Shown here piece after piece: positions 19,843 through 27,992 of a stretch of 30,456 bases of DNA. The translations under genes and the position numbers were made by a program. Under the pieces are notes generated by a model. It was not told where the DNA came from. It searched no databases and was given only the letters and a program-made list of their open reading frames with translations. The first letter of the stretch is position 1, and every line of letters starts with the position of its first letter. Source of the DNA: an uncultured Candidatus Bathyarchaeia archaeon. Its GTDB lineage: Archaea > Thermoproteota > Bathyarchaeia > Bathyarchaeales > Bathycorpusculaceae. The stretch is taken from assembly GCA_964536035.1 (NCBI GenBank), contig CAZHWL010000001.1:1-30456 (forward strand). Direction: 5' to 3'.

Positions 19843-21015
19843 TCACTTGATCTCTTTCACTGCTCTTTCTATTCGGTCCAAAGCTTCTTCCAGCTTTTCA
19901 TAAGCAGATGCGTAGGAAATTCTGATGTATCCTTCACCATATTTGCCGAAAGCTGAGCCTGGAACCGTGACTACATGAGCTTTTTTTATTAGAAATTCTG
20001 AAAACTCTTCTGAGGATTTTCCCAGTTCCCTAATATTTGGGAAAGCATAGAAAGCTCCTTTAGGCAGTGAACAATGGAGACCTCTGATCTCATTAAGTCT
20101 TTTATGGACAAGGTGTCGTCGCCTGTCAAACTCTTTAACCATATCTTTGACAAAGTCTTGTTGCACCTTTAACGCCTTCAGCGCGGTATATTGCGAGATG
20201 CTGTTTACACAAGCCACTGCGTATTGATGTACAAGCCAGAGTGCTGAAATAAGTTCTTTAGGACCGTAGACATATCCGATCCGCAGGCCAGTCATAGCGT
20301 AAGTTTTCGAGAAAGAGGAAACAACTAGTGTGCGTTCACGCATCTCAGGCAATGTTGCCGCGCAATGGTGTTTCAGTCCGTCGTAGATCATTTTCTCATA
20401 CACTTCGTCAGATATCACTATCAAGTCATGTTCAACCGCAACCTTTGCCAAAGCTGCCATGTCACTATGTGACAGAACCCCGCCTGTAGGGTTGTTTGGA
20501 TAATTCAGGATTATCGCGCGTGACTTGTCTGTGATTAGCGATGTCACATCATCCAGTGATACCTTGAAGTCTCTTTCTTCCAAGAGTGGAACAGAAGTAG
20601 GCACACCGCCTGCAAGTCGAACCCCTGGCTCATAGAGTACAAATCCTGGGTTGGGAACGAGAACCTCGTCACCAGGATTTATCAAACCGAAGAGTGCACA
20701 GAAAATTGCCTCGGTTCCACCCACAGTAATCAGTATTTCAGAGCTTGGGTCATACTTCAAGCCGTATTCTTTGAAGGCTTTCTGAGCTAGCGCCTCACGC
20801 AACTCGGGAACACCATTCGTTGGTTCGTAGTGAGTTTTACCTTCTTTTGCTGCTTCACAACCTGCGTTCAGAACTTCTTTCGGTGGGCAAAAATCTGGTT
20901 CCCCGATACTTAAATTGATGGAATCCGGCATTTCGTTAGCCATTGCGAAGAAACGGCGTATTCCAGACGGCTTTATCCATTTTAGTCTTTCTGCTGGTCC
21001 GAATGGTGAATTCAC
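19843..21015 (-). CDS. Class I/II PLP aminotransferase (aspartate aminotransferase-like)
   Basis: LSIGEPDF, NYPNNPTG, SDEVYE, SSFSKTYAMTGLRIG and YIRISYA motifs. Start is GTG 21015 with a GAGGAG RBS, not 21135. Confidence 0.95.
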   Translation of the reverse strand: MNSPFGPAERLKWIKPSGIRRFFAMANEMPDSINLSIGEPDFCPPKEVLNAGCEAAKEGKTHYEPTNGVPELREALAQKAFKEYGLKYDPSSEILITVGGTEAIFCALFGLINPGDEVLVPNPGFVLYEPGVRLAGGVPTSVPLLEERDFKVSLDDVTSLITDKSRAIILNYPNNPTGGVLSHSDMAALAKVAVEHDLIVISDEVYEKMIYDGLKHHCAATLPEMRERTLVVSSFSKTYAMTGLRIGYVYGPKELISALWLVHQYAVACVNSISQYTALKALKVQQDFVKDMVKEFDRRRHLVHKRLNEIRGLHCSLPKGAFYAFPNIRELGKSSEEFSEFLIKKAHVVTVPGSAFGKYGEGYIRISYASAYEKLEEALDRIERAVKEIK

Positions 21016-21160
21016 TTTATTCTCCTCATTAAGCAATGCAGACATTTCAATAAATCGTTTGTGCCTGTACCGCGTGCTTTCTCGCATAAAGGCGACAGTC
21101 TTAAAAGCGGAGCCTGTATACAGAACCGTATCCATTCAGCATAATCCGGGGAGTCAAAGT

Positions 21161-21640
21161 TTGAAGCTAAAAGAAAGCGTTCAGGCATGGTTGCAGGGCT
21201 CAGTTAGTGACCCCATTGTGGCAATACTTGCTAAAAATAGCCATTTAACGCGAACGCAGCTTGAAACACTGCTCATTGACATTTTATCGGAGAATTTCTC
21301 AGGCAAACAGCTAAAATATGATGAAAAAGCCAAATTAAGGCTAACAAAGGCACAAATAAGCCGCGGTGCGTTCAATAGGACATTAAAACAGGCTAAGGAT
21401 AACGTAATAAAATCAATCTATACCGTCTTACTTCTGGGCTATTTGGGAGTATTCGAGGACACAACTCTTGACCCGTACCTTGAGGTGGCAAACAAATTGC
21501 ATACATACGTGGAGGCATACAAAGACATACCAAATAAGAATGCAGAACTGAGTGACCATCTAAAAGTCATAGAAATGATCAGAGAAGAGCTTGAAACGAG
21601 CCTAAAACAGCTTTCCAGTCCATCAGAAGGCATGACGTGA
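21161..21640 (+). CDS. Conserved hypothetical protein with probable HTH (159 aa)
   Basis: LTRTQLETL...KAKLR...ISRGAFNRTLKQA resembles a sigma-region-4/Tfx-type HTH. The 20915 start overlaps the aminotransferase, so TTG 21161 was chosen. Confidence 0.72.
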   Translation: MKLKESVQAWLQGSVSDPIVAILAKNSHLTRTQLETLLIDILSENFSGKQLKYDEKAKLRLTKAQISRGAFNRTLKQAKDNVIKSIYTVLLLGYLGVFEDTTLDPYLEVANKLHTYVEAYKDIPNKNAELSDHLKVIEMIREELETSLKQLSSPSEGMT

Positions 21641-21932
21641 TATCACAAATCACGCAAAAAAAGCGCAAAGTGTGACATGAGAAGAGCACCGTCTGGAAAG
21701 GGGTATAAATCGCTTTTTTATCAAAACAAAGCCAAAAATGAGAAGATTCAAGAAAGAGTCATCATGTGTTGAGTTGGCTTTACTTTCACGGAAACTGTGA
21801 CGTGTGACGTCATAGAACCATGGCCTAATGGAAGAGACCATAAGATTTAAATGAAATATCATGAGATTGTGATGTGTGATGCAACAGTGGCAGTGTCACA
21901 TATAATCACGTCGAAATCACAGGAGTTCGTGA
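21636..21932. repeat. Array of 13 YGTGA/TCACR motifs in both orientations (operator- or centromere-like)
   Basis: Counted by hand at 21636, 21643, 21650, 21671, 21786, 21796, 21803, 21868, 21875, 21896, 21906, 21917 and 21928. Includes tandem heptamers TGTGACG x2 and TGTGATG x2 and palindromes GTGATATCAC and TGACGTCA. Confidence 0.8.
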
Positions 21933-21933
21933 G

Positions 21934-22644
21934 ATGGAGTATCTTCTAGCACTTGTAGGAATTTTGCTTGGAATTACGGCTATTATGGCGGGTGTGTGCT
22001 ACAGATTGCTACGTAAAGCGAAAAGAGATTATGAGAAAGCAAAAGACGCTGTCAAAGACATTGTTCTAAGCTTCAATAGGCAGATTAGAAATGAAGCCGA
22101 GAAGATTGCACTTGTCGCATATAAAATGGAAGCCCTCTCGTCGAAGAGCGATAGTGCTCTAAAAAAAGCAGATGAGGCGGTTAAGGTAGCTCAGACAATG
22201 GAAGCTAAAGTCACTTCAGTGTTGGAAGCAAGAGACAAAATGTTGACGAGACTTGACGAGGTTGACAAAAAAGTGTGTGATGTCACCACGTCACAATCTT
22301 CAATCTCTGCAAAGATCACAAGTTTGGAAAACCAAGCAAGGCAGTTTGCACTTGCTCCTGAACCAAATGTTGAGGCGGTAATCCCCATCAAAAGAGATAA
22401 AGCTCTCGCGCCTCTCACGGAGACAGAGTTATCTGTCCTAGAAATGTTAACCTCTGAAGGACCGAAGACTGCTCCTGAGACCAAAGACAGAGTAAAACTA
22501 AGCAGAGAACATACCGCTCGCCTCATGAAGAAACTCTATGAGGGAGGTTACCTGGAAAGAGAAACAGGAAAAATTCCTTTCAAATATAGCGTCAAGAAGG
22601 AAATGGAGAAACTGCTAAAGAAGGTTGAGGATCAAGCATCATAG
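21934..22644 (+). CDS. Membrane-anchored coiled-coil protein with C-terminal winged helix
   Basis: N-terminal TM (YLLALVGILLGITAIMAGVCY) followed by RLLRKAKR; about 110 aa of heptad-rich helix; LTETELSVLEML...LSREHTARLMKKLYEGGYLER wHTH; GGAG RBS. Confidence 0.85.
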   Translation: MEYLLALVGILLGITAIMAGVCYRLLRKAKRDYEKAKDAVKDIVLSFNRQIRNEAEKIALVAYKMEALSSKSDSALKKADEAVKVAQTMEAKVTSVLEARDKMLTRLDEVDKKVCDVTTSQSSISAKITSLENQARQFALAPEPNVEAVIPIKRDKALAPLTETELSVLEMLTSEGPKTAPETKDRVKLSREHTARLMKKLYEGGYLERETGKIPFKYSVKKEMEKLLKKVEDQAS

Positions 22645-22711
22645 GTTACACTAACGACGGTTTTTTCTGTGTTTTAAGCTCTCTCGATTGCCTTTCCTTA
22701 CTAGAGAGCCG

Positions 22712-23257
22712 CTACGTTTCAGGGACGTCATAATCTGGTCTTCTGCTTCTCTCCAAGTATTCTGGATAATGTGTTACTTTTATGGATACTGCGAACCTTA
22801 TTTTTGGTTCAGATATCAATAATGCTTCGCCCGAGAGAAGAGTTAAAGCTGTCTGGCTTTCCATTTCAATCCTAAAATCTTGCAGGTAACTCCTGTGTAC
22901 ATGTGCATTTCCAACAGCTGTACAGATTCGCTCGCCATAACCCCAATTAACATTGCGTCCTTCTACGATTGCATGTAGAATGCATGAGGTATACTCACCA
23001 GTTGTTTGCCCGCTTAAGCGTCCTTGTCGCGCAGTCAACAGCCAAGAAACTTCCAGAGAAGTAGCCTGTTTTTTTAAAGGTTTTATTAGGGTAACATCTG
23101 CCTTCGTGTTTACTGGTGGCTCTTCTTTGGTCTCAATGGGACCTGCAATTCGGCCATTATTAACATAGGTCTTGAGCTTTCGCTCCAGATCAAAGAAGTC
23201 TCTTTTAACAGTCCGGTCTATCGATCTCCCCTCAGCAGATAGTGGGGTAGTCTCCAA
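22712..23257 (-). CDS. Hypothetical protein (181 aa), no recognisable family
   Basis: An open frame filling the gap between two genes, co-oriented with 23300..23755 (42 bp gap); TTG start. Confidence 0.55.
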   Translation of the reverse strand: METTPLSAEGRSIDRTVKRDFFDLERKLKTYVNNGRIAGPIETKEEPPVNTKADVTLIKPLKKQATSLEVSWLLTARQGRLSGQTTGEYTSCILHAIVEGRNVNWGYGERICTAVGNAHVHRSYLQDFRIEMESQTALTLLSGEALLISEPKIRFAVSIKVTHYPEYLERSRRPDYDVPET

Positions 23258-23299
23258 CTATAAAATTGTTGCACTTTTGATTACCGTTTCTGCTCGAGT

Positions 23300-23755
23300 C
23301 TAGTTTTCTGGTAAATCTTTCTGTACGGGCATCGGTTGTTTGAATTGTATTTGCGGGGCCTTTTGAGCCAAATGATACTTCAGACTGTTCGCTGCGCCAG
23401 CCTTAACGAGCATGCCTTTCAAGGCCATCCGTGAGAGATATGTAGCCGCCGTGCTTAATCCTATGGGTTCCCTGAGCTCCTGCTCATACGCTGATTGTAA
23501 GTCCTTTGAAGAAAACCAAATAAGTTGGAAGTTTCTCTGAACAACCATACGAACCTTTTCACATTTAGACAGCTTCGGATCTACAATTGTTTGTTTTTGC
23601 TCAGTGTTGATGTTTTCGTTTGGCACTCCACCTAGAAGTTCTACTAGATCTAAGAGCCGGACAGCCTTGTCTCTAGTTATCTGGCCTTCGAAGGCTATTG
23701 TGTATCGATTGCCTTCGCTGTCGAATAGCTCTACACGCATTTTTCTTGCAGGCAT
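23300..23755 (-). CDS. Hypothetical two-domain protein with C-terminal winged helix, divergent from oriC
   Basis: Small N-terminal beta/alpha domain (MRVELFDSEGNRYTIAFEG...LLDLVELL), a polar linker, then FSSKDLQSAYEQ...IGLSTAATYLSRM..KGMLVK.G wHTH. Confidence 0.8.
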   Translation of the reverse strand: MPARKMRVELFDSEGNRYTIAFEGQITRDKAVRLLDLVELLGGVPNENINTEQKQTIVDPKLSKCEKVRMVVQRNFQLIWFSSKDLQSAYEQELREPIGLSTAATYLSRMALKGMLVKAGAANSLKYHLAQKAPQIQFKQPMPVQKDLPEN

Positions 23756-23954
23756 CTATACTGCCCATCTCTTCAAAGTGTTCACAACTTTACAATTCAC
23801 ATGTTATAGGTGTTGCGGTGAACGCACCATATCTAAAAAAGGCCGTAAAGAAACAGAAAAGGCAAAACGGGCAGATTTTGCAAAGACTTTGTCTAAACTA
23901 ACTTCACTACGGTTTTAGAATTTAAAAAAAAGTAAAACATGTGGCGCCCCGGTG

Positions 23955-24407
23955 TCTCCAGAAGAAATGAAGGGGTGGTTAGTTCACACAGAAGAAGCAT
24001 GAAAAACTCAAGAATTCTCAAAAGGAATTCAAAAACATTCACTAAAAAATCAACTTCACAAAGGCTTCACAAAAAAGTGAACTAAAGTGAATAGCCGCAG
24101 ATCAGCAATCACTAACCGTTTTAAAGCTAAACTACTTTGGTAGCTATTTGGCATTTCAGTTTTATGCTTATCACTAAAAAATTGGTGACAGGTTATGGGC
24201 CACCCCTTCATTTCTATTGGAAAGTGCGGAGTGCACATCACTTCAAAAAAACGCAGTGCAAACTTTTGTTAGTTCATCTAAATTCTTTAACAATCACAAT
24301 TATATCTTGTTTAATGTACTGACCTACTAGAGTATATTTATCAAGAAAGTAAATTAGCATTAATTCTCAACATCAAGAAAGGTTTTCCACTGGAATTATT
24401 GGGGTGG
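23955..24407. other. Probable chromosomal replication origin (oriC): ORB elements and AT-rich unwinding region
   Basis: ORB1 (+) TCCAGAAGAAATGAAGGGGTGG at 23957-23978; ORB2 (-) TCCAATAGAAATGAAGGGGTGG at 24200-24221, 20/22 identical to ORB1 and inverted; ORB3 (+) TCCACTGGAATTATTGGGGTGG at 24386-24407; AT-rich spacer; adjacent to cdc6. Confidence 0.88.
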
Positions 24408-24554
24408 GGCTACCATTGAAATAGATATTTGGGAGGCGCCATTATCCTTCTGTAAGATTGTCAACACGCGAATCGATTTTTTTGTACGGTATGACTTATT
24501 TTCTCCACACGAAGAAGAGGCGTTACCTTTGAAATTAGAGGGAGGAAGACGTGG

Positions 24555-25805
24555 TTGCAAGAAACAAATATCTTAGATGGCGTGTTTGAACGGTTTGTTA
24601 GTGAAGCGAGAGTGTTCAGAGATAGAGAAGTTCTTCGGCATGACTATTTGCCTAACCGATTACCTCATAGGGAGGAGCAAATTAGACAGCTTGGTGAGAC
24701 AGTGGCTCCGGTTTTGAAAGGAGCGCGCAGTTCGAACATTTTTATTTATGGCAAGACTGGCACGGGCAAAACAGCTGTGACAAAGTATGTTTTGAATCAT
24801 CTAGAAATTAAGGCGAAGGAACTCGGCGCGCCAATTAGGTTTTGTTATGTTAACTGCAGAATGGTGGGTTCTGAGTATAGGATCTTTGCAAGCCTATGCC
24901 AGACAATAGGAATCTCTGTCCCATTCACAGGCTTGTCCGTGGGTGAAGTTTTTGAGAGATTCCGCGCTGGCCTGGAGACTTCGCGGATTATTCTGATAAT
25001 AGTCTTGGATGAAGCGGATGCGTTGATAAAGGATCGCGGTGATGGCTTGCTTTATGAGTTGACGAGAATAAATGAGTCTTTACGGAGTAGTAAGGTATCG
25101 CTTATTGGAATCTCTAATGATCTCAGGCTCAAGGAATTTTTGGATCCACGGGTCTTGAGTTCACTTAGTGAGGAAGAAATGGTTTTCAGGCCTTATGATG
25201 CTGCTGAACTGAAACGTATTCTTTCTGAACGTGTAGCTACAGCTTTCTGCAAGGATGCCTTATCTGACTCAGCTCTAAGCTTGTGCTCAGCTTTGGCGGC
25301 GGCAGAACATGGTGACGCGCGGCGTGCGCTGGACTTGTTGCGGGTCGCTGGAGAGGTTGCAGAGCGGGCCAATGCTACTGTCGTGGTTGAGGATCATGTG
25401 CGGGAAGCTGAGAAGCGCATTGAGCACAACCGCGTCTTCGAAGGGCTGAAGAATCTGACTTTGCATTCGAAACTTGTGGTCTTAAGTGTTTATCACCTTA
25501 ACCGTGCAGAGGTTCATCGAGCAATTACTGGAGAGATCTTTGAAGTGTACAGTGAGGTCTGCGGGTTCATAGGGATGACACCATTAACACAACGCAGACT
25601 AGGCTCATTAGTTAACGAGCTTGATTCTATGGGCCTTCTGAACGCAAAAGTCGTGAGCATGGGTAGATATGGTCGAACCAAAAAAATCAGACTGGAAGTC
25701 TCCAGAGGAATAGTTAAAGATGTTTTTGGCACCGACGATAGGCTTGGGCGCTTAATCGAGTACGAACCAAAATGTCTAAAGAAAGGTGCAGATCGCGGCA
25801 AATAA
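24555..25805 (+). CDS. cdc6: Orc1/Cdc6 replication initiator
   Basis: LPHREEQI, Walker A GKTGTGKT, YVNC, Walker B VLDEAD, GDARRALDLL, and a C-terminal wH (GRYGRTK); GGAGG RBS. Confidence 0.97.
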   Translation: MQETNILDGVFERFVSEARVFRDREVLRHDYLPNRLPHREEQIRQLGETVAPVLKGARSSNIFIYGKTGTGKTAVTKYVLNHLEIKAKELGAPIRFCYVNCRMVGSEYRIFASLCQTIGISVPFTGLSVGEVFERFRAGLETSRIILIIVLDEADALIKDRGDGLLYELTRINESLRSSKVSLIGISNDLRLKEFLDPRVLSSLSEEEMVFRPYDAAELKRILSERVATAFCKDALSDSALSLCSALAAAEHGDARRALDLLRVAGEVAERANATVVVEDHVREAEKRIEHNRVFEGLKNLTLHSKLVVLSVYHLNRAEVHRAITGEIFEVYSEVCGFIGMTPLTQRRLGSLVNELDSMGLLNAKVVSMGRYGRTKKIRLEVSRGIVKDVFGTDDRLGRLIEYEPKCLKKGADRGK

Positions 25806-25831: not shown

Positions 25832-27400
25832 CTAGTTGAATGGGACAACCGACGTCTCCATCGTTTGGAGATTGACAACAGGTACCTTTCCAGGTGTCGG
25901 TATAAAGCCAAGCCTCTGCATGTACTCGGTTTGCTCCTGCCAGCCCCCAGAGTTGACTATCATGACGCCTCGATAGTTGCATTGTCCTATTGCGTGAATG
26001 TGTCCTGCGTGGAAGATATCTGGGACGTGATCTATAACTAGGAAGTCTCTGTTTTCTGGCGAAAGTGTTGTCTTCCCACCGTATATTGGTGCCAGATGAC
26101 GGCATTGGAGAAGCAGTTTCATGGCCTTCTCTGGGTTATTGTTACTCATCTCTGGCACTGTGGATATTACGTCATCAAGGCTGCGCCCATGGTACATCAA
26201 GACTTCAACTCCATGGAGGCTCACGTCACATGGGTTCCCGAGAGAATAAACATTTCTTGATTCTTGAAGTAACTCTAGAAAACTATCTGCTATTGCTGGC
26301 TGGGGCAAAGCCTTTCTTGGTACATCATGATTTCCAGGGATTATTATTATGTCTATGTAATCTGGGATTTGTTCGATGTATTTTGCGGCGAGGCGGTACT
26401 GCTTGTAAACATCTCTAATTACGAGTTCCTTCACTTGGTTAGGGTAGATCCCTACTCCGTCGACGATGTCTCCTGCGACAAGGACGTATTTGACGTGACT
26501 TGCCATTTCTCTCATTTGTGCGTTGCCGTATTTGCCATTCAACCATAGTATGAAGCGGTGGAATGATTCTTTTTGGAATTTTGCGCTACCCACGTGCATG
26601 TCTGAGGTTAATGCTGCGTAGACTAGTTCAGGAGCTCTATGCTGGGTTCTTTGCCCGACTTCTGGATAGATTATATCTTCAGCAACAAGAAGCGTGCTTC
26701 TCGTTTTTACTACACTAAGGCAGACAACTTGATCCAGCAACAGCATACAAACTTTCTTTCGAAGTTCTTCTGAGGCGTTCTGGGGAACAAGAACAGTGAT
26801 GTTTGCCTGTAAATCCTCAACCATAAGTATCGTTCTGTTCTTGGATTCTCGCTTTTCAGTTATCATGCCGATAATTTTGAGTCGTGTGTTTGGTGGAGTT
26901 TTCAAAGCGTCTATTATTGAAGCGGCGCTCTTAACGTCCATTCTCTGTCTGAGTAGGCGCTCTGTCCGTTTGAATCTATCTTGGAAATATCCCAAGAAGT
27001 CTTGGATTGTACCGTTTGTGTTCAATTTCGTGCTTGGATCTTCGATCACATGAACGTTTGACTCAACTTCCTTTGCATATGGATGAAAAGCTGTCTTCCC
27101 ATCGAGCATCTGAACTTCTTGCAGTTCAGAAAGTTTTTGTGGCTTCTCCAACGAGATATCAAGATTGACTACTTCCTTCGTCGGTGTGTTCTCCTCTAGT
27201 AATTGTTCTAGAAACGGTCTGTCTATGAACATTGGTTTCTCGCTGGTGCTTTCTAACTTCTTTATGATTTTAACCATGATTTCGGAAGGATCCTCTGTAG
27301 CTGCGAGCGTTGACAATAGTCCGAAGGCATCCGGATTTAGCTGATATCCTGCTGACATTGTTAGCTCGATTGCTCTGCGAAGTTTTTCCAGTTCACTCAT
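25832..27400 (-). CDS. polB: DNA polymerase II (PolD) small subunit DP1 (3'-5' exonuclease)
   Basis: OB fold plus phosphoesterase motifs SDMHVGS, AGDIVDG, PGNHD, YHG and GHIH. ATG 27400 overlaps the upstream stop as ATGA. Confidence 0.96.
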   Translation of the reverse strand: MSELEKLRRAIELTMSAGYQLNPDAFGLLSTLAATEDPSEIMVKIIKKLESTSEKPMFIDRPFLEQLLEENTPTKEVVNLDISLEKPQKLSELQEVQMLDGKTAFHPYAKEVESNVHVIEDPSTKLNTNGTIQDFLGYFQDRFKRTERLLRQRMDVKSAASIIDALKTPPNTRLKIIGMITEKRESKNRTILMVEDLQANITVLVPQNASEELRKKVCMLLLDQVVCLSVVKTRSTLLVAEDIIYPEVGQRTQHRAPELVYAALTSDMHVGSAKFQKESFHRFILWLNGKYGNAQMREMASHVKYVLVAGDIVDGVGIYPNQVKELVIRDVYKQYRLAAKYIEQIPDYIDIIIIPGNHDVPRKALPQPAIADSFLELLQESRNVYSLGNPCDVSLHGVEVLMYHGRSLDDVISTVPEMSNNNPEKAMKLLLQCRHLAPIYGGKTTLSPENRDFLVIDHVPDIFHAGHIHAIGQCNYRGVMIVNSGGWQEQTEYMQRLGFIPTPGKVPVVNLQTMETSVVPFN

Positions 27401-27992
27401 AACCTGATAGTTCTCCAAACCATTCCGTTCGGGATAATTACGTAGCCTTCTTCTTTGTCTCCGATCGCTTCAGTTTGATGCGTTGAATGTAGACAAACAG
27501 TCGGTGTTGCTGTTGTCGCATCGATCTCGCGATTCGTTAAGAACCGTCGTGTTATCTCTTCTTTCAGTCGCATGCGTTGCAGGATCATTTTGTATACTTC
27601 TCCAGTCTTTCAGTGACATGCCTAGTAGCTTTCGTGTTGATGTTTGATGTACTTCTATTGTTCATTATCTTTCTCTGCTATTAACCTGTTCAGTCCTATA
27701 ACACGTTCTCTGAGCTTTCGTTATTGGAAACGTTGGCAGAAAAATTCTGAGTCCTCTACTGACCATTTGCCCATCTGCTTTCCTCAAGGAACCAGTTGCT
27801 GGAAGACTGAGAGGAGCATCTATGACTGTTAATGCGGATCTTGCAGAAATGAGACTTTCTAGAATCTCGACGCCTTTATGAAGGAGGCATGTTTCCAAGA
27901 CTTTGTTGCGTAGGGACCGCCCATCCTGTTGGGTTGTTCGGGTTTGCCGCAAGGTCTATACCAACAAAAACGTCTTCTTTCAATTCTAACAT
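27397..27992 (-). pseudogene. DUF429 / COG2410 predicted RNase H-fold nuclease, with four frameshifts
   Basis: Five reading-frame segments join up: MLELKEDVFVGIDLAANPNNPTGWAV / LRNKVLETCLL...IDAPLSLP..GSLRKAD...PTFP / KLRERVIGLNRLIAEK / TIEVHQTSTRKLLGM..KDWRSIQ / MILQ...REIDATTA...GDKEEGYVIIP. Frameshifts at about 27914, 27717, 27662 and 27590. Confidence 0.85.

Follow-up and report, generated by a model that had tools for sequence, protein, structure and literature searches.

A conserved origin-flanking module of candidate DNA-binding proteins and two sequence motifs in Bathyarchaeia and Nitrosopumilaceae

The 30,456-nucleotide stretch analyzed here (the window; positions 1 to 30,456 of contig CAZHWL010000001.1 in assembly GCA_964536035.1) derives from an uncultured Candidatus Bathyarchaeia archaeon and contains a predicted replication origin adjoined by a block of small genes that we refer to as g1 to g4. 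We propose, with somewhat better than even confidence, that g1, g2 and g4 form an undescribed, conserved, origin-flanking DNA-binding module consisting of two protein/motif pairs and a helical partner, all of the binding being predicted from sequence. The first pair comprises g4 (23300-23755, minus strand, 151 aa), which reads away from the origin and encodes an N-terminal domain and a winged helix-turn-helix (wHTH), together with TTCACA boxes in the origin; the second comprises g2 (21934-22644, plus strand, 236 aa), encoding a membrane anchor, a stalk and a C-terminal wHTH, together with a GTGA/TCAC array in the 293-bp spacer (21641-21933) that precedes it. The partner is g1 (21161-21640, plus strand), a conserved open reading frame (ORF) whose 159-aa product is all-helical in its structure model and whose start is supported by its orthologues. 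A first-pass annotation had described a single four-gene system for tethering or segregating the chromosome, with one TCAC repeat shared by array and origin. The ORFs are present at the four claimed positions, in a compact block adjoining an origin and its cdc6 gene, and the array is real; the single system is not borne out, as the fourth gene, g3 (22712-23257, minus strand), is a deletion scar and the array and the boxes are lost independently of one another.

The origin is predicted in the 799-bp AT-rich spacer between g4 and an orc1/cdc6 initiator gene (24555-25805, plus strand), whose product has AAA domains and matches Pfam Cdc6_C (91.9 bits) and Cdc6_lid (81.7 bits). Three origin recognition boxes (ORBs) lie in this interval: ORB1 with its G-string at 23944-23988 (element 23957, plus strand), ORB2 at 24200-24234 (element 24203, minus strand), which is inverted relative to ORB1 (inverted repeat of 35 nt, 77% complementary), and ORB3 (TTCCACTGGAA - spacer - GGGGTGGGG) at 24384-24411 (element 24386, plus strand), which adjoins cdc6. 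The strict ORB pattern occurs nowhere else in the window, there is no second cluster in the 1.155-Mb assembly, and the GC content falls to 0.34 at 24001-24500. Because the ORB cluster is unique, lies beside cdc6 and has inverted ORBs around an AT-rich center, we accept it as the predicted origin; it has the features of an Orc1/Cdc6-ORB origin, namely an initiator gene beside an AT-rich region and inverted ORBs with G-strings.

The first-pass annotation had reported that the TCAC core of the array is enriched in the origin, and the count is indeed raised, at 15 in 541 bp. What is repeated in the origin is a distinct hexamer, TTCACA, and the GTGAnnnGTGA composite is missing from 20 of 21 related origins. 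The window origin has five TTCACA boxes, all in one orientation. Two (23781-23801, plus strand, at 23781 and 23796) lie between the predicted g4 TATA box (CTATAAC, minus strand) and the g4 start codon, a layout conserved in the order-level loci; one, at 23983, begins 4 nt after the G-string of ORB1, a juxtaposition found also in other classes; and the AT-rich center (24055-24092, plus strand) has TTCACA at 24055 and 24066 facing GTGAA at 24077 and 24087, with a pair or triple of boxes at the equivalent place in relatives. The number of TTCACA boxes per origin averages 4.95 in 21 order-level loci, 3.7 in 14 class-level loci and 4.4 in five loci from other families of the phylum, where some 0.4-0.5 are expected, so that about five per origin is a roughly 10-fold excess. 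Origins of Nitrosopumilaceae, a family assigned through its sole identified member, Ca. Nitrosotalea devanaterra, contain 9-12 copies of TTAACA instead (0.6 expected). The genomes searched are related to one another, and these counts and those that follow describe the genomes searched rather than independent trials.

The array (21637-21932; core TGTGAY) contains 12-13 copies of GTGA/TCAC, with 13 in 21630-21935 and 12 within the 293-bp spacer, against a window background of 2.5 per 300 bp (standard deviation 1.9, 99.9th percentile 11). The spacer is the window maximum and the densest such cluster of the 1.155-Mb assembly, and its eight TGTGAY copies in 275 bp are also the genome maximum; the 13-copy array in the first-pass annotation is thus not a chance feature. 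Other clusters of TGTGAY and TTCACA in the assembly (contigs C2, C24 and C132) fall within coding sequence and were discounted as probably due to chance.

The layout of the array is stereotyped in about 18 of 20 relatives, and runs from site 1 through pair 1, a TATA box, pair 2, a TCAC trio and GGAG to the g2 start codon. Site 1 (TCACAAATCAC, 21642-21653, minus strand) starts 2 nt past the g1 stop codon, and 17 of 21 loci have TCACnnnTCAC at spacer position 3. Across the order, some 150 bp of variable sequence come next; the sequence in the middle of the spacer is not conserved. Operator pair 1 (TGTGAC G TGTGAC, 21796-21809, plus strand; GTGAnnnGTGA at spacer position ~157-162 in most family-level loci) is ~37 bp upstream of the predicted g2 TATA box (~50 bp start to start). 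This box, TTTAAAT (21846-21852, plus strand), is preceded by a conserved CCATAA, the two together forming a predicted transcription factor B recognition element (BRE)/TATA arrangement, and, as a putative promoter element, is conserved in the form YTTAART at spacer position ~204-211. Operator pair 2 (TGTGAT G TGTGAT, 21868-21881, plus strand) lies 22 nt past the TATA start (22-23 nt order-wide), in the zone where transcription is expected to start, and the g2 leader has a trio of TCAC half-sites (21895-21921, minus strand; at 21896, 21906 and 21917, with spacings of 10 and 11 nt, and at positions ~256, 266 and 277 in relatives), after which comes GGAG. Because the pairs bracket the TATA box and start zone of g2, the array is first of all a predicted g2 operator set. 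Placement of operators over the TATA box or start site is the usual mode of archaeal repression, and the alternative offered in the first-pass annotation, an autoregulated operon, fits the array at least. An Rfam scan of the window was negative and lends no support to a structured RNA in the spacer.

Natural separations of genes and motifs suggest which motif goes with which protein. In three genomes of the Bathyarchaeia family f17, g4 has been lost while cdc6, ORBs, g2 and g1 are kept; TTCACA is missing from the origins of these genomes, and the g1-g2 spacers retain dense GTGAY arrays. All seven g4-negative cdc6-upstream regions examined lack boxes, and four of these (three from f17 and one from f53) have ORBs. 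Seven other loci have lost g2 and kept g1, g4 and the boxes, and in these the TGTGAY array is absent. Where g4 is far from cdc6 (20 kb, 22 kb and 505 kb, in three genomes), the cdc6-adjacent origin keeps boxes beside ORB1 and between the ORBs. The array is found wherever g2 is, including loci without g4, and GTGA arrays precede g2 in Nitrosopumilaceae and in the g2-g4 loci of two other families. We conclude from these patterns of co-occurrence that the array goes with g2 and the boxes go with g4, as two apparently independent motif systems. A single TCAC element common to array and origin is rejected on the composite-motif counts and the independent patterns of loss.

The gene order amt-g1-g2-(cassette)-g4-oriC-cdc6, in which amt is an aminotransferase gene, is identical in all 20 order-level loci fetched, and the gene for the DNA polymerase D (polD) small subunit was seen in every one of these whose fetched stretch reached it. 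A further 20 loci were taken from other orders of Bathyarchaeia; g4 adjoins cdc6 and is divergent from it in 15 of these and lies within ~3.5 kb of it in the other five, with g1 nearby in 18 and g2 in 10. The polD-cdc6-origin-g4-g2-g1 block is intact in Nitrosopumilaceae; in Ca. Nitrosotalea devanaterra, a member of that family, the three proteins are annotated without a known function. The linkage of g1, g2 and g4 to cdc6/oriC therefore holds within the order, in other Bathyarchaeia orders, in Nitrosopumilaceae and in other families of the Thermoproteota. Four more lineages have g4 next to a group of two to four ORB-like elements and no cdc6 within 7 kb, and in six Bathyarchaeia genomes from families in which g4 is absent or nearly so, the cdc6 orthologue is also missing (at E <= 1e-60). 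Of 61 relatives, 54 have g4, 53 have g2 and 55 have g1. In the class, g4 is present in 91 of 151 genomes, and in profile searches of 251 sampled genomes of the phylum g4 was found in 166 and g1 in 131; all three are nearly always single-copy among the 61 relatives.

Some of these loci have additional genes. In other families of the phylum, three loci (L065:8927-9736, L066:8342-9132 and L068:6264-6896) have an extra gene between g1 and g2 that encodes an XRE-type helix-turn-helix (HTH) and an apparent CBS domain, with GTGA/TCAC sites upstream. The Bathyarchaeia loci L036, L044 and L048, which are also without g2, have an insertion of ~3.3 kb between g4 and cdc6. In two g4-negative Bathyarchaeia loci (L069:7403-7951 and L072:7437-8101) the interval from the ORB pair to cdc6 contains a small ORF (~100-115 aa) that includes an HTH-like stretch and lies on the side of the origin opposite to that occupied by g4 in other lineages.

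The structure model of g4 (predicted local distance difference test [pLDDT] score 76) has a beta-hairpin and helix at residues 1-42, a disordered linker and a wHTH at residues 63-130. The fold neighbors of the wHTH are generic (the Fur DNA-binding domain with a Z score of 8.7, MecI/BlaI, RosR and the Cdc6 winged helix), and Pfam Penicillinase_R matches 25 of 32 family members, all below threshold (best 20.8 bits, cut-off 22.6), with no match to the window protein itself. Pfam Cdc6_C matches six of the 32 members below threshold, and an AFDB match is to an ORC1-type protein 9 (E = 1e-3). The BlaI/MecI (Penicillinase_R) and Fur DNA-binding domains are thus the nearest fold and profile neighbors of the g4 wHTH, but the matches are sub-threshold, the beta-beta-alpha domain and linker of g4 have no counterpart in them, and g4 lacks a metal-binding or dimerization domain of the Fur or MecI kind. 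As modelled, the N-terminal beta-beta-alpha domain appears to be novel. Where the predicted recognition helix starts, residue 102 is threonine in the TTCACA lineages and valine, isoleucine or alanine in Nitrosopumilaceae and in loci L025 and L032, which favor TTAACA; we take this apparent correlation between residue and box as a lead, not as proof.

The g2 protein has a single hydrophobic segment at residues 4-22 (Kyte-Doolittle 2.57), which is followed by seven lysine or arginine residues and is aligned in nearly all of 27 orthologues. Residues 25-140 contain no proline or glycine and are 35% charged, and from this composition together with weak profile matches we infer a coiled coil. The C-terminal wHTH scores 25.6 bits against Pfam TrmB (cut-off 25.6), and the orthologue in locus L011 matches MarR (28.8 bits, cut-off 24.6) and HTH_27 (27.2 bits, cut-off 22.2). 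The recognition helix, REHTxRxxKKL, is invariant across classes, from Bathyarchaeia to Nitrosotalea. By these matches g2 is placed in the MarR/TrmB wHTH superfamily through its C-terminal domain alone, its predicted architecture as a whole departing from that of the soluble regulators: MarR and Lrs14 proteins are soluble and of ~100-150 aa, with TrmB larger, whereas g2, whose C-terminal domain matches the MarR/TrmB/Lrs14 archaeal wHTH regulators, adds an anchor, a long stalk and synteny with the origin. It is sometimes named a MarR-family or winged-helix protein in the source annotations, where g1, g2 and g4 are otherwise hypothetical proteins or conserved proteins of unknown function.

The start of g1 is a TTG codon at 21161, backed by alignments of orthologues, which share the invariant motif SRGAFxRT..QA..N....T.LLLGY.G. 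The longest frame starts at 20915 and overlaps the aminotransferase gene on the opposite strand. The TTG is just 25 bp from the annotated aminotransferase start, so either the two divergent promoters share very little space or the true aminotransferase start is more internal. The g1 protein matches no Pfam or NCBIfam family, and a Pfam scan of all alignment members gave no consistent family; its all-helical model (pLDDT 67) recovered its own family and weak helical look-alikes only in Foldseek searches of the PDB and of AFDB clusters. An ESM Atlas lead to Sigma70_r4 (score 0.79) was too weak to be used. Profile searches against PDB sequences found nothing for g1 or g4, no known function is assigned by profile to either, and none of g1, g2 and g4 has a Pfam or NCBIfam family beyond generic wHTH matches. 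The description of the locus as having three HTH proteins is therefore borne out for two of them, g2 and g4; g1 is all-helical in its model and matches no HTH family. PADLOC found no defence-system match for g1 or g4 and weak wHTH and coiled-coil matches only for g2, and on this outcome a defence-island reading was dropped.

The remaining gene, g3, consists of a NurA-like N-terminus of ~146 aa fused to a HerA-like C-terminus of ~60 aa. Residues 5-146 align with the start of a ~350-aa ORF that follows g4 in many relatives, and residues 122-181 with the end of a ~520-aa ORF adjoining g2 in relatives, the window keeping the equivalent of residues 438-518 of the HerA-like protein only. The HerA-like ORF at L011:4078-5637 matches DUF87 (44.1 bits, cut-off 23.2) and, in part, the NCBIfam HerA/CedD and PADLOC HerA models. 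Its ~350-aa partner has no Pfam match at E <= 0.1, and its ESM Atlas feature matches are to NurA clusters in 100 of 100 cases (top score 0.95); NurA genes usually pair with HerA, as this ORF does. The assembly holds just these two NurA/HerA remnants, and a genome of the same genus has stop codons within the NurA::HerA fusion. A role for g3 as an orphan component of the system, as in the first-pass annotation, is not upheld in the face of the fusion alignments, the remnants and the stop codons, and a lineage-specific orphan was rejected on the alignments to NurA and HerA and the remnant-only assembly. About half of the order has an intact NurA-HerA pair at this place, and other loci have nothing between g4 and g2. 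The pair, for example at L011:3054-5637, lies directly downstream of g4 and is co-directional with it, starting 58 bp past g4, with its two ORFs overlapping; it may be co-transcribed with g4. No Mre11-Rad50 genes were seen in the fetched L011 stretch.

The first-pass annotation also noted that the window has no ParA-like or SMC gene, and this is correct; both are present elsewhere in the genome, on contigs C50/C43 and C2 respectively. No match to the ParA-type ATPase family Pfam AAA_31 was found on the window contig, matches being confined to C50, C43 and C49. As relatives carry a HerA-type ATPase inside the block and the window has the g3 scar, the lack of an ATPase is a peculiarity of this genome, and the label ATPase-independent is apt for this genome and not for the locus in general.

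A mechanism consistent with these observations would have g4 binding the TTCACA boxes and g2 binding the TGTGAY array. As boxes lie over the g4 core promoter, binding of g4 there would shut off its own transcription; as boxes also lie beside ORB1 and in the AT-rich center between the inverted ORBs, g4 would act on the origin too, as an accessory or regulatory factor. The g2 protein would be anchored in the membrane by its one N-terminal helix, with the wHTH held in the cytoplasm on a long helical stalk, and would repress its own promoter; with g2 fixed in the membrane and the array 0.5-3.5 kb from the origin, occupancy of the array would also keep DNA near the origin at the membrane. On its predicted architecture, g2 might thus tether the origin region to the membrane. 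The g1 protein would be a partner staying with g4 and/or g2, and g3 would stand outside the system as the scar of a deleted NurA-HerA pair. Of the two functions suggested by the first-pass annotation, tethering or control of initiation, the latter is better supported, through g4, and the former is conceivable for g2.

Several points weigh against this proposal. The origin itself is a prediction based on ORBs, AT richness and adjacency to cdc6, and the pairings of g4 and g2 with their motifs rest on co-occurrence among related, non-independent genomes; loss of g4 with retention of ORBs was seen only in one Bathyarchaeia family and one distant lineage. Two g4-positive genomes (G202 and G363) have neither ORBs nor boxes upstream of cdc6, so that either the link between g4 and the origin is not universal or their origins are elsewhere. 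The assembly has about 10 further clusters of TTCACA (4 per 500 bp), the examined ones being coding and maybe due to chance, and loci L024 and L026 have mixed boxes yet retain threonine at residue 102 of g4. Confidence in the g1 model is just moderate, and a three-chain complex prediction of g1 with the cytoplasmic part of g2 and with g4 scored 0.00, which speaks neither for nor against binding. Finally, ordinary autoregulation would account just as well for the position of the boxes at the g4 promoter and of the pairs at the g2 promoter.

If autoregulation were all, g2 and g4 would be ordinary transcription factors, perhaps also repressing cdc6 or nearby genes, that sit in a passively inherited gene order and have no role in replication or positioning, a reading that we consider rather unlikely. 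Both motif sets do overlap the core promoters of g2 and g4, the array occurs once in the genome as an autoregulatory operator would, and the aminotransferase gene is equally syntenic at the order level, which indicates that gene order here is generally stable. Beyond the order, however, the aminotransferase gene was not detected in the fetched loci, whereas g4, g2 and g1 are linked to the origin into Nitrosopumilaceae. Three of the five origin boxes, those beside ORB1 and in the AT-rich center, are away from any promoter; the boxes remain in the origin when g4 is 20-505 kb away; g4 lies beside ORB clusters even without cdc6; and the five clusters of sites across 290 bp in the array exceed what simple autoregulation needs.

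A dedicated ATPase-independent system for tethering the origin to the membrane or for segregation, with the array as a centromere-like element, g2 as the anchor and the other proteins as adaptors, is the model of the first-pass annotation in its strong form and strikes us as decidedly improbable. In its favor, g2 unites a membrane anchor, a long stalk and a wHTH, its pairing with the array is conserved across classes, the array is multi-site, genome-unique and 1.8 kb from the origin, and there is no ParA-like gene in the window; there is also a bacterial precedent in RicO, which is reported to bridge origin-proximal sites and the membrane (bioRxiv 10.64898/2026.03.06.710092). But the sites of the array are arranged like operators around a promoter; repeated losses of g2 from loci that keep g1, g4 and the origin show it to be dispensable in many lineages; g3 is a scar and not a component; the TCAC core is not common to array and origin; and SMC and ParA/MinD-like ATPases are encoded elsewhere in the genome. 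A role for g4 as a second initiator of replication, in the manner of WhiP at Sulfolobus oriC3, is barely credible: the g4 gene mirrors cdc6 across the origin, where archaeal initiators tend to be encoded, and g4 has boxes within the origin and a weak wHTH-level likeness to the C-terminal domains of Orc1/Cdc6, but it has no ATPase and only one small wHTH, classical ORBs and Orc1/Cdc6 are at the same origin, and ORB origins persist in genomes without g4.

The position of g4 and its boxes in our preferred reading, that of an origin-flanking module of two protein/motif pairs and a partner, recalls the UBP protein of Sulfolobales, a 111-aa beta-rich saddle protein with DNA-binding beta-hairpins that binds the motif ATTATACAAAC (Dhanaraju et al. 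2025, PMC12141716). This motif, ucm, is a specific non-ORB element in the unwinding region between ORBs, and UBP is a non-initiator that is needed for origin function and binds elsewhere too (PMC12141716). The positions of the TTCACA boxes match this picture, and one g4-negative lineage has a near-exact ucm in the place of the boxes: in the f53 locus L079 (G221:C22:240200-241900) the cdc6-upstream region has two tandem ORBs and no boxes in the origin, with TTATACAAACTC, a close match to the Sulfolobus ucm (PMC12141716), between the ORB-like elements and a single TGTGAA ~400 bp outside the ORB region. The g4/TTCACA and UBP/ucm pairs may thus be alternative solutions in different lineages. They differ in that g4 is modelled as an N-terminal domain and a wHTH with the putative motif TTCACA/TTAACA and lacks the UBP saddle fold, and in that the UBP gene is not reported to be adjacent to the origin (PMC12141716), where g4 usually is.

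For g2 the functional comparison is with bacterial proteins that bridge DNA and membrane, such as Bacillus RacA/DivIVA and Noc. RicO of Staphylococcus aureus, from a Firmicutes family, is reported to carry its DNA-binding domain at the N-terminus and an amphipathic helix at the C-terminus, and to use several ricS sites to bridge origin-proximal DNA and the membrane (bioRxiv 10.64898/2026.03.06.710092). RicO and g2 each combine a DNA-binding domain and a membrane element in one protein, and g2 has the parts needed; compared by architecture, g2 differs in having an N-terminal transmembrane helix, a stalk of ~115 residues, a C-terminal wHTH and one array, on its own promoter. The ucm/UBP pair and RicO are the functionally closest systems, and neither is related to the module in fold or architecture.

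Among archaeal systems, WhiP and SegAB are also winged-helix or other DNA-binding proteins that are tied to origins or segregation and encoded beside their sites. WhiP is larger than g4 and resembles the winged-helix region of Cdt1, and SegB works with the neighboring ParA-like SegA. The g4 model has a single wHTH, and the fold searches on which this comparison is based gave no Cdt1 or WhiP match to g4. The adjacent ParA-type ATPase gene of SegAB and ParABS systems is not found in the window. A search of full-text literature found no description of a g1/g2/g4 module.

The block lies in a run of genes spanning 19.8-27.4 kb that begins with the aminotransferase gene (19843-21135, minus strand) and ends with the gene for the DNA polymerase D small subunit (DP1; 25832-27418, minus strand), which matches Pfam DNA_pol_E_B (68.5 bits) and is syntenic in relatives. 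A second, divergent Orc1/Cdc6 paralogue (30% identity) is encoded at G000:C82:3954-5066, and nearly all relatives have one. Metatranscriptome contigs from four RNA libraries cover the entire region, including the origin, at 90-99% identity; as they carry no strand or end information and may contain DNA, transcript boundaries cannot be read from them. Those inside the origin spacer (X19 at 23824-24015, 23987-24103 and 24308-24538; X17 at 23554-23910 and 23973-24305) could be transcription through the origin or DNA carry-over.

The module is more general than could be seen from the window alone, and its parts and logic differ from those of a single four-gene tether. According to the review The Archaeal Cell Cycle (PMC7617429), how archaea segregate their DNA is not understood. 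Little is known of how origin firing and chromosome positioning are controlled in archaea outside Sulfolobales and haloarchaea. The locus provides three testable candidates that are unannotated in Pfam and NCBIfam, two of them with a predicted DNA motif (TTCACA/TTAACA for g4 and TGTGAY for g2), in Bathyarchaeia and in Nitrosopumilaceae, which include cultivated ammonia oxidizers. In practice, g4 and its boxes can serve as a marker of origins in metagenome-assembled genomes, also where cdc6 is not adjacent. A more ambitious reading, which we hold to be unlikely, is that g4, g2 and g1 are an ancient origin-organizing system of Thermoproteota in which g4 would mark the origin and modulate unwinding or MCM loading, g2 would hold the newly replicated origin region at the envelope, and g1 would link the two; if true, it would be a ParA-independent means of origin positioning and control, and a counterpart of ucm/UBP in Sulfolobales. 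And if g4 acts like UBP, non-initiator factors that bind boxes at the unwinding region would appear to be a general feature of archaeal origins, provided in different lineages by proteins of unrelated folds.

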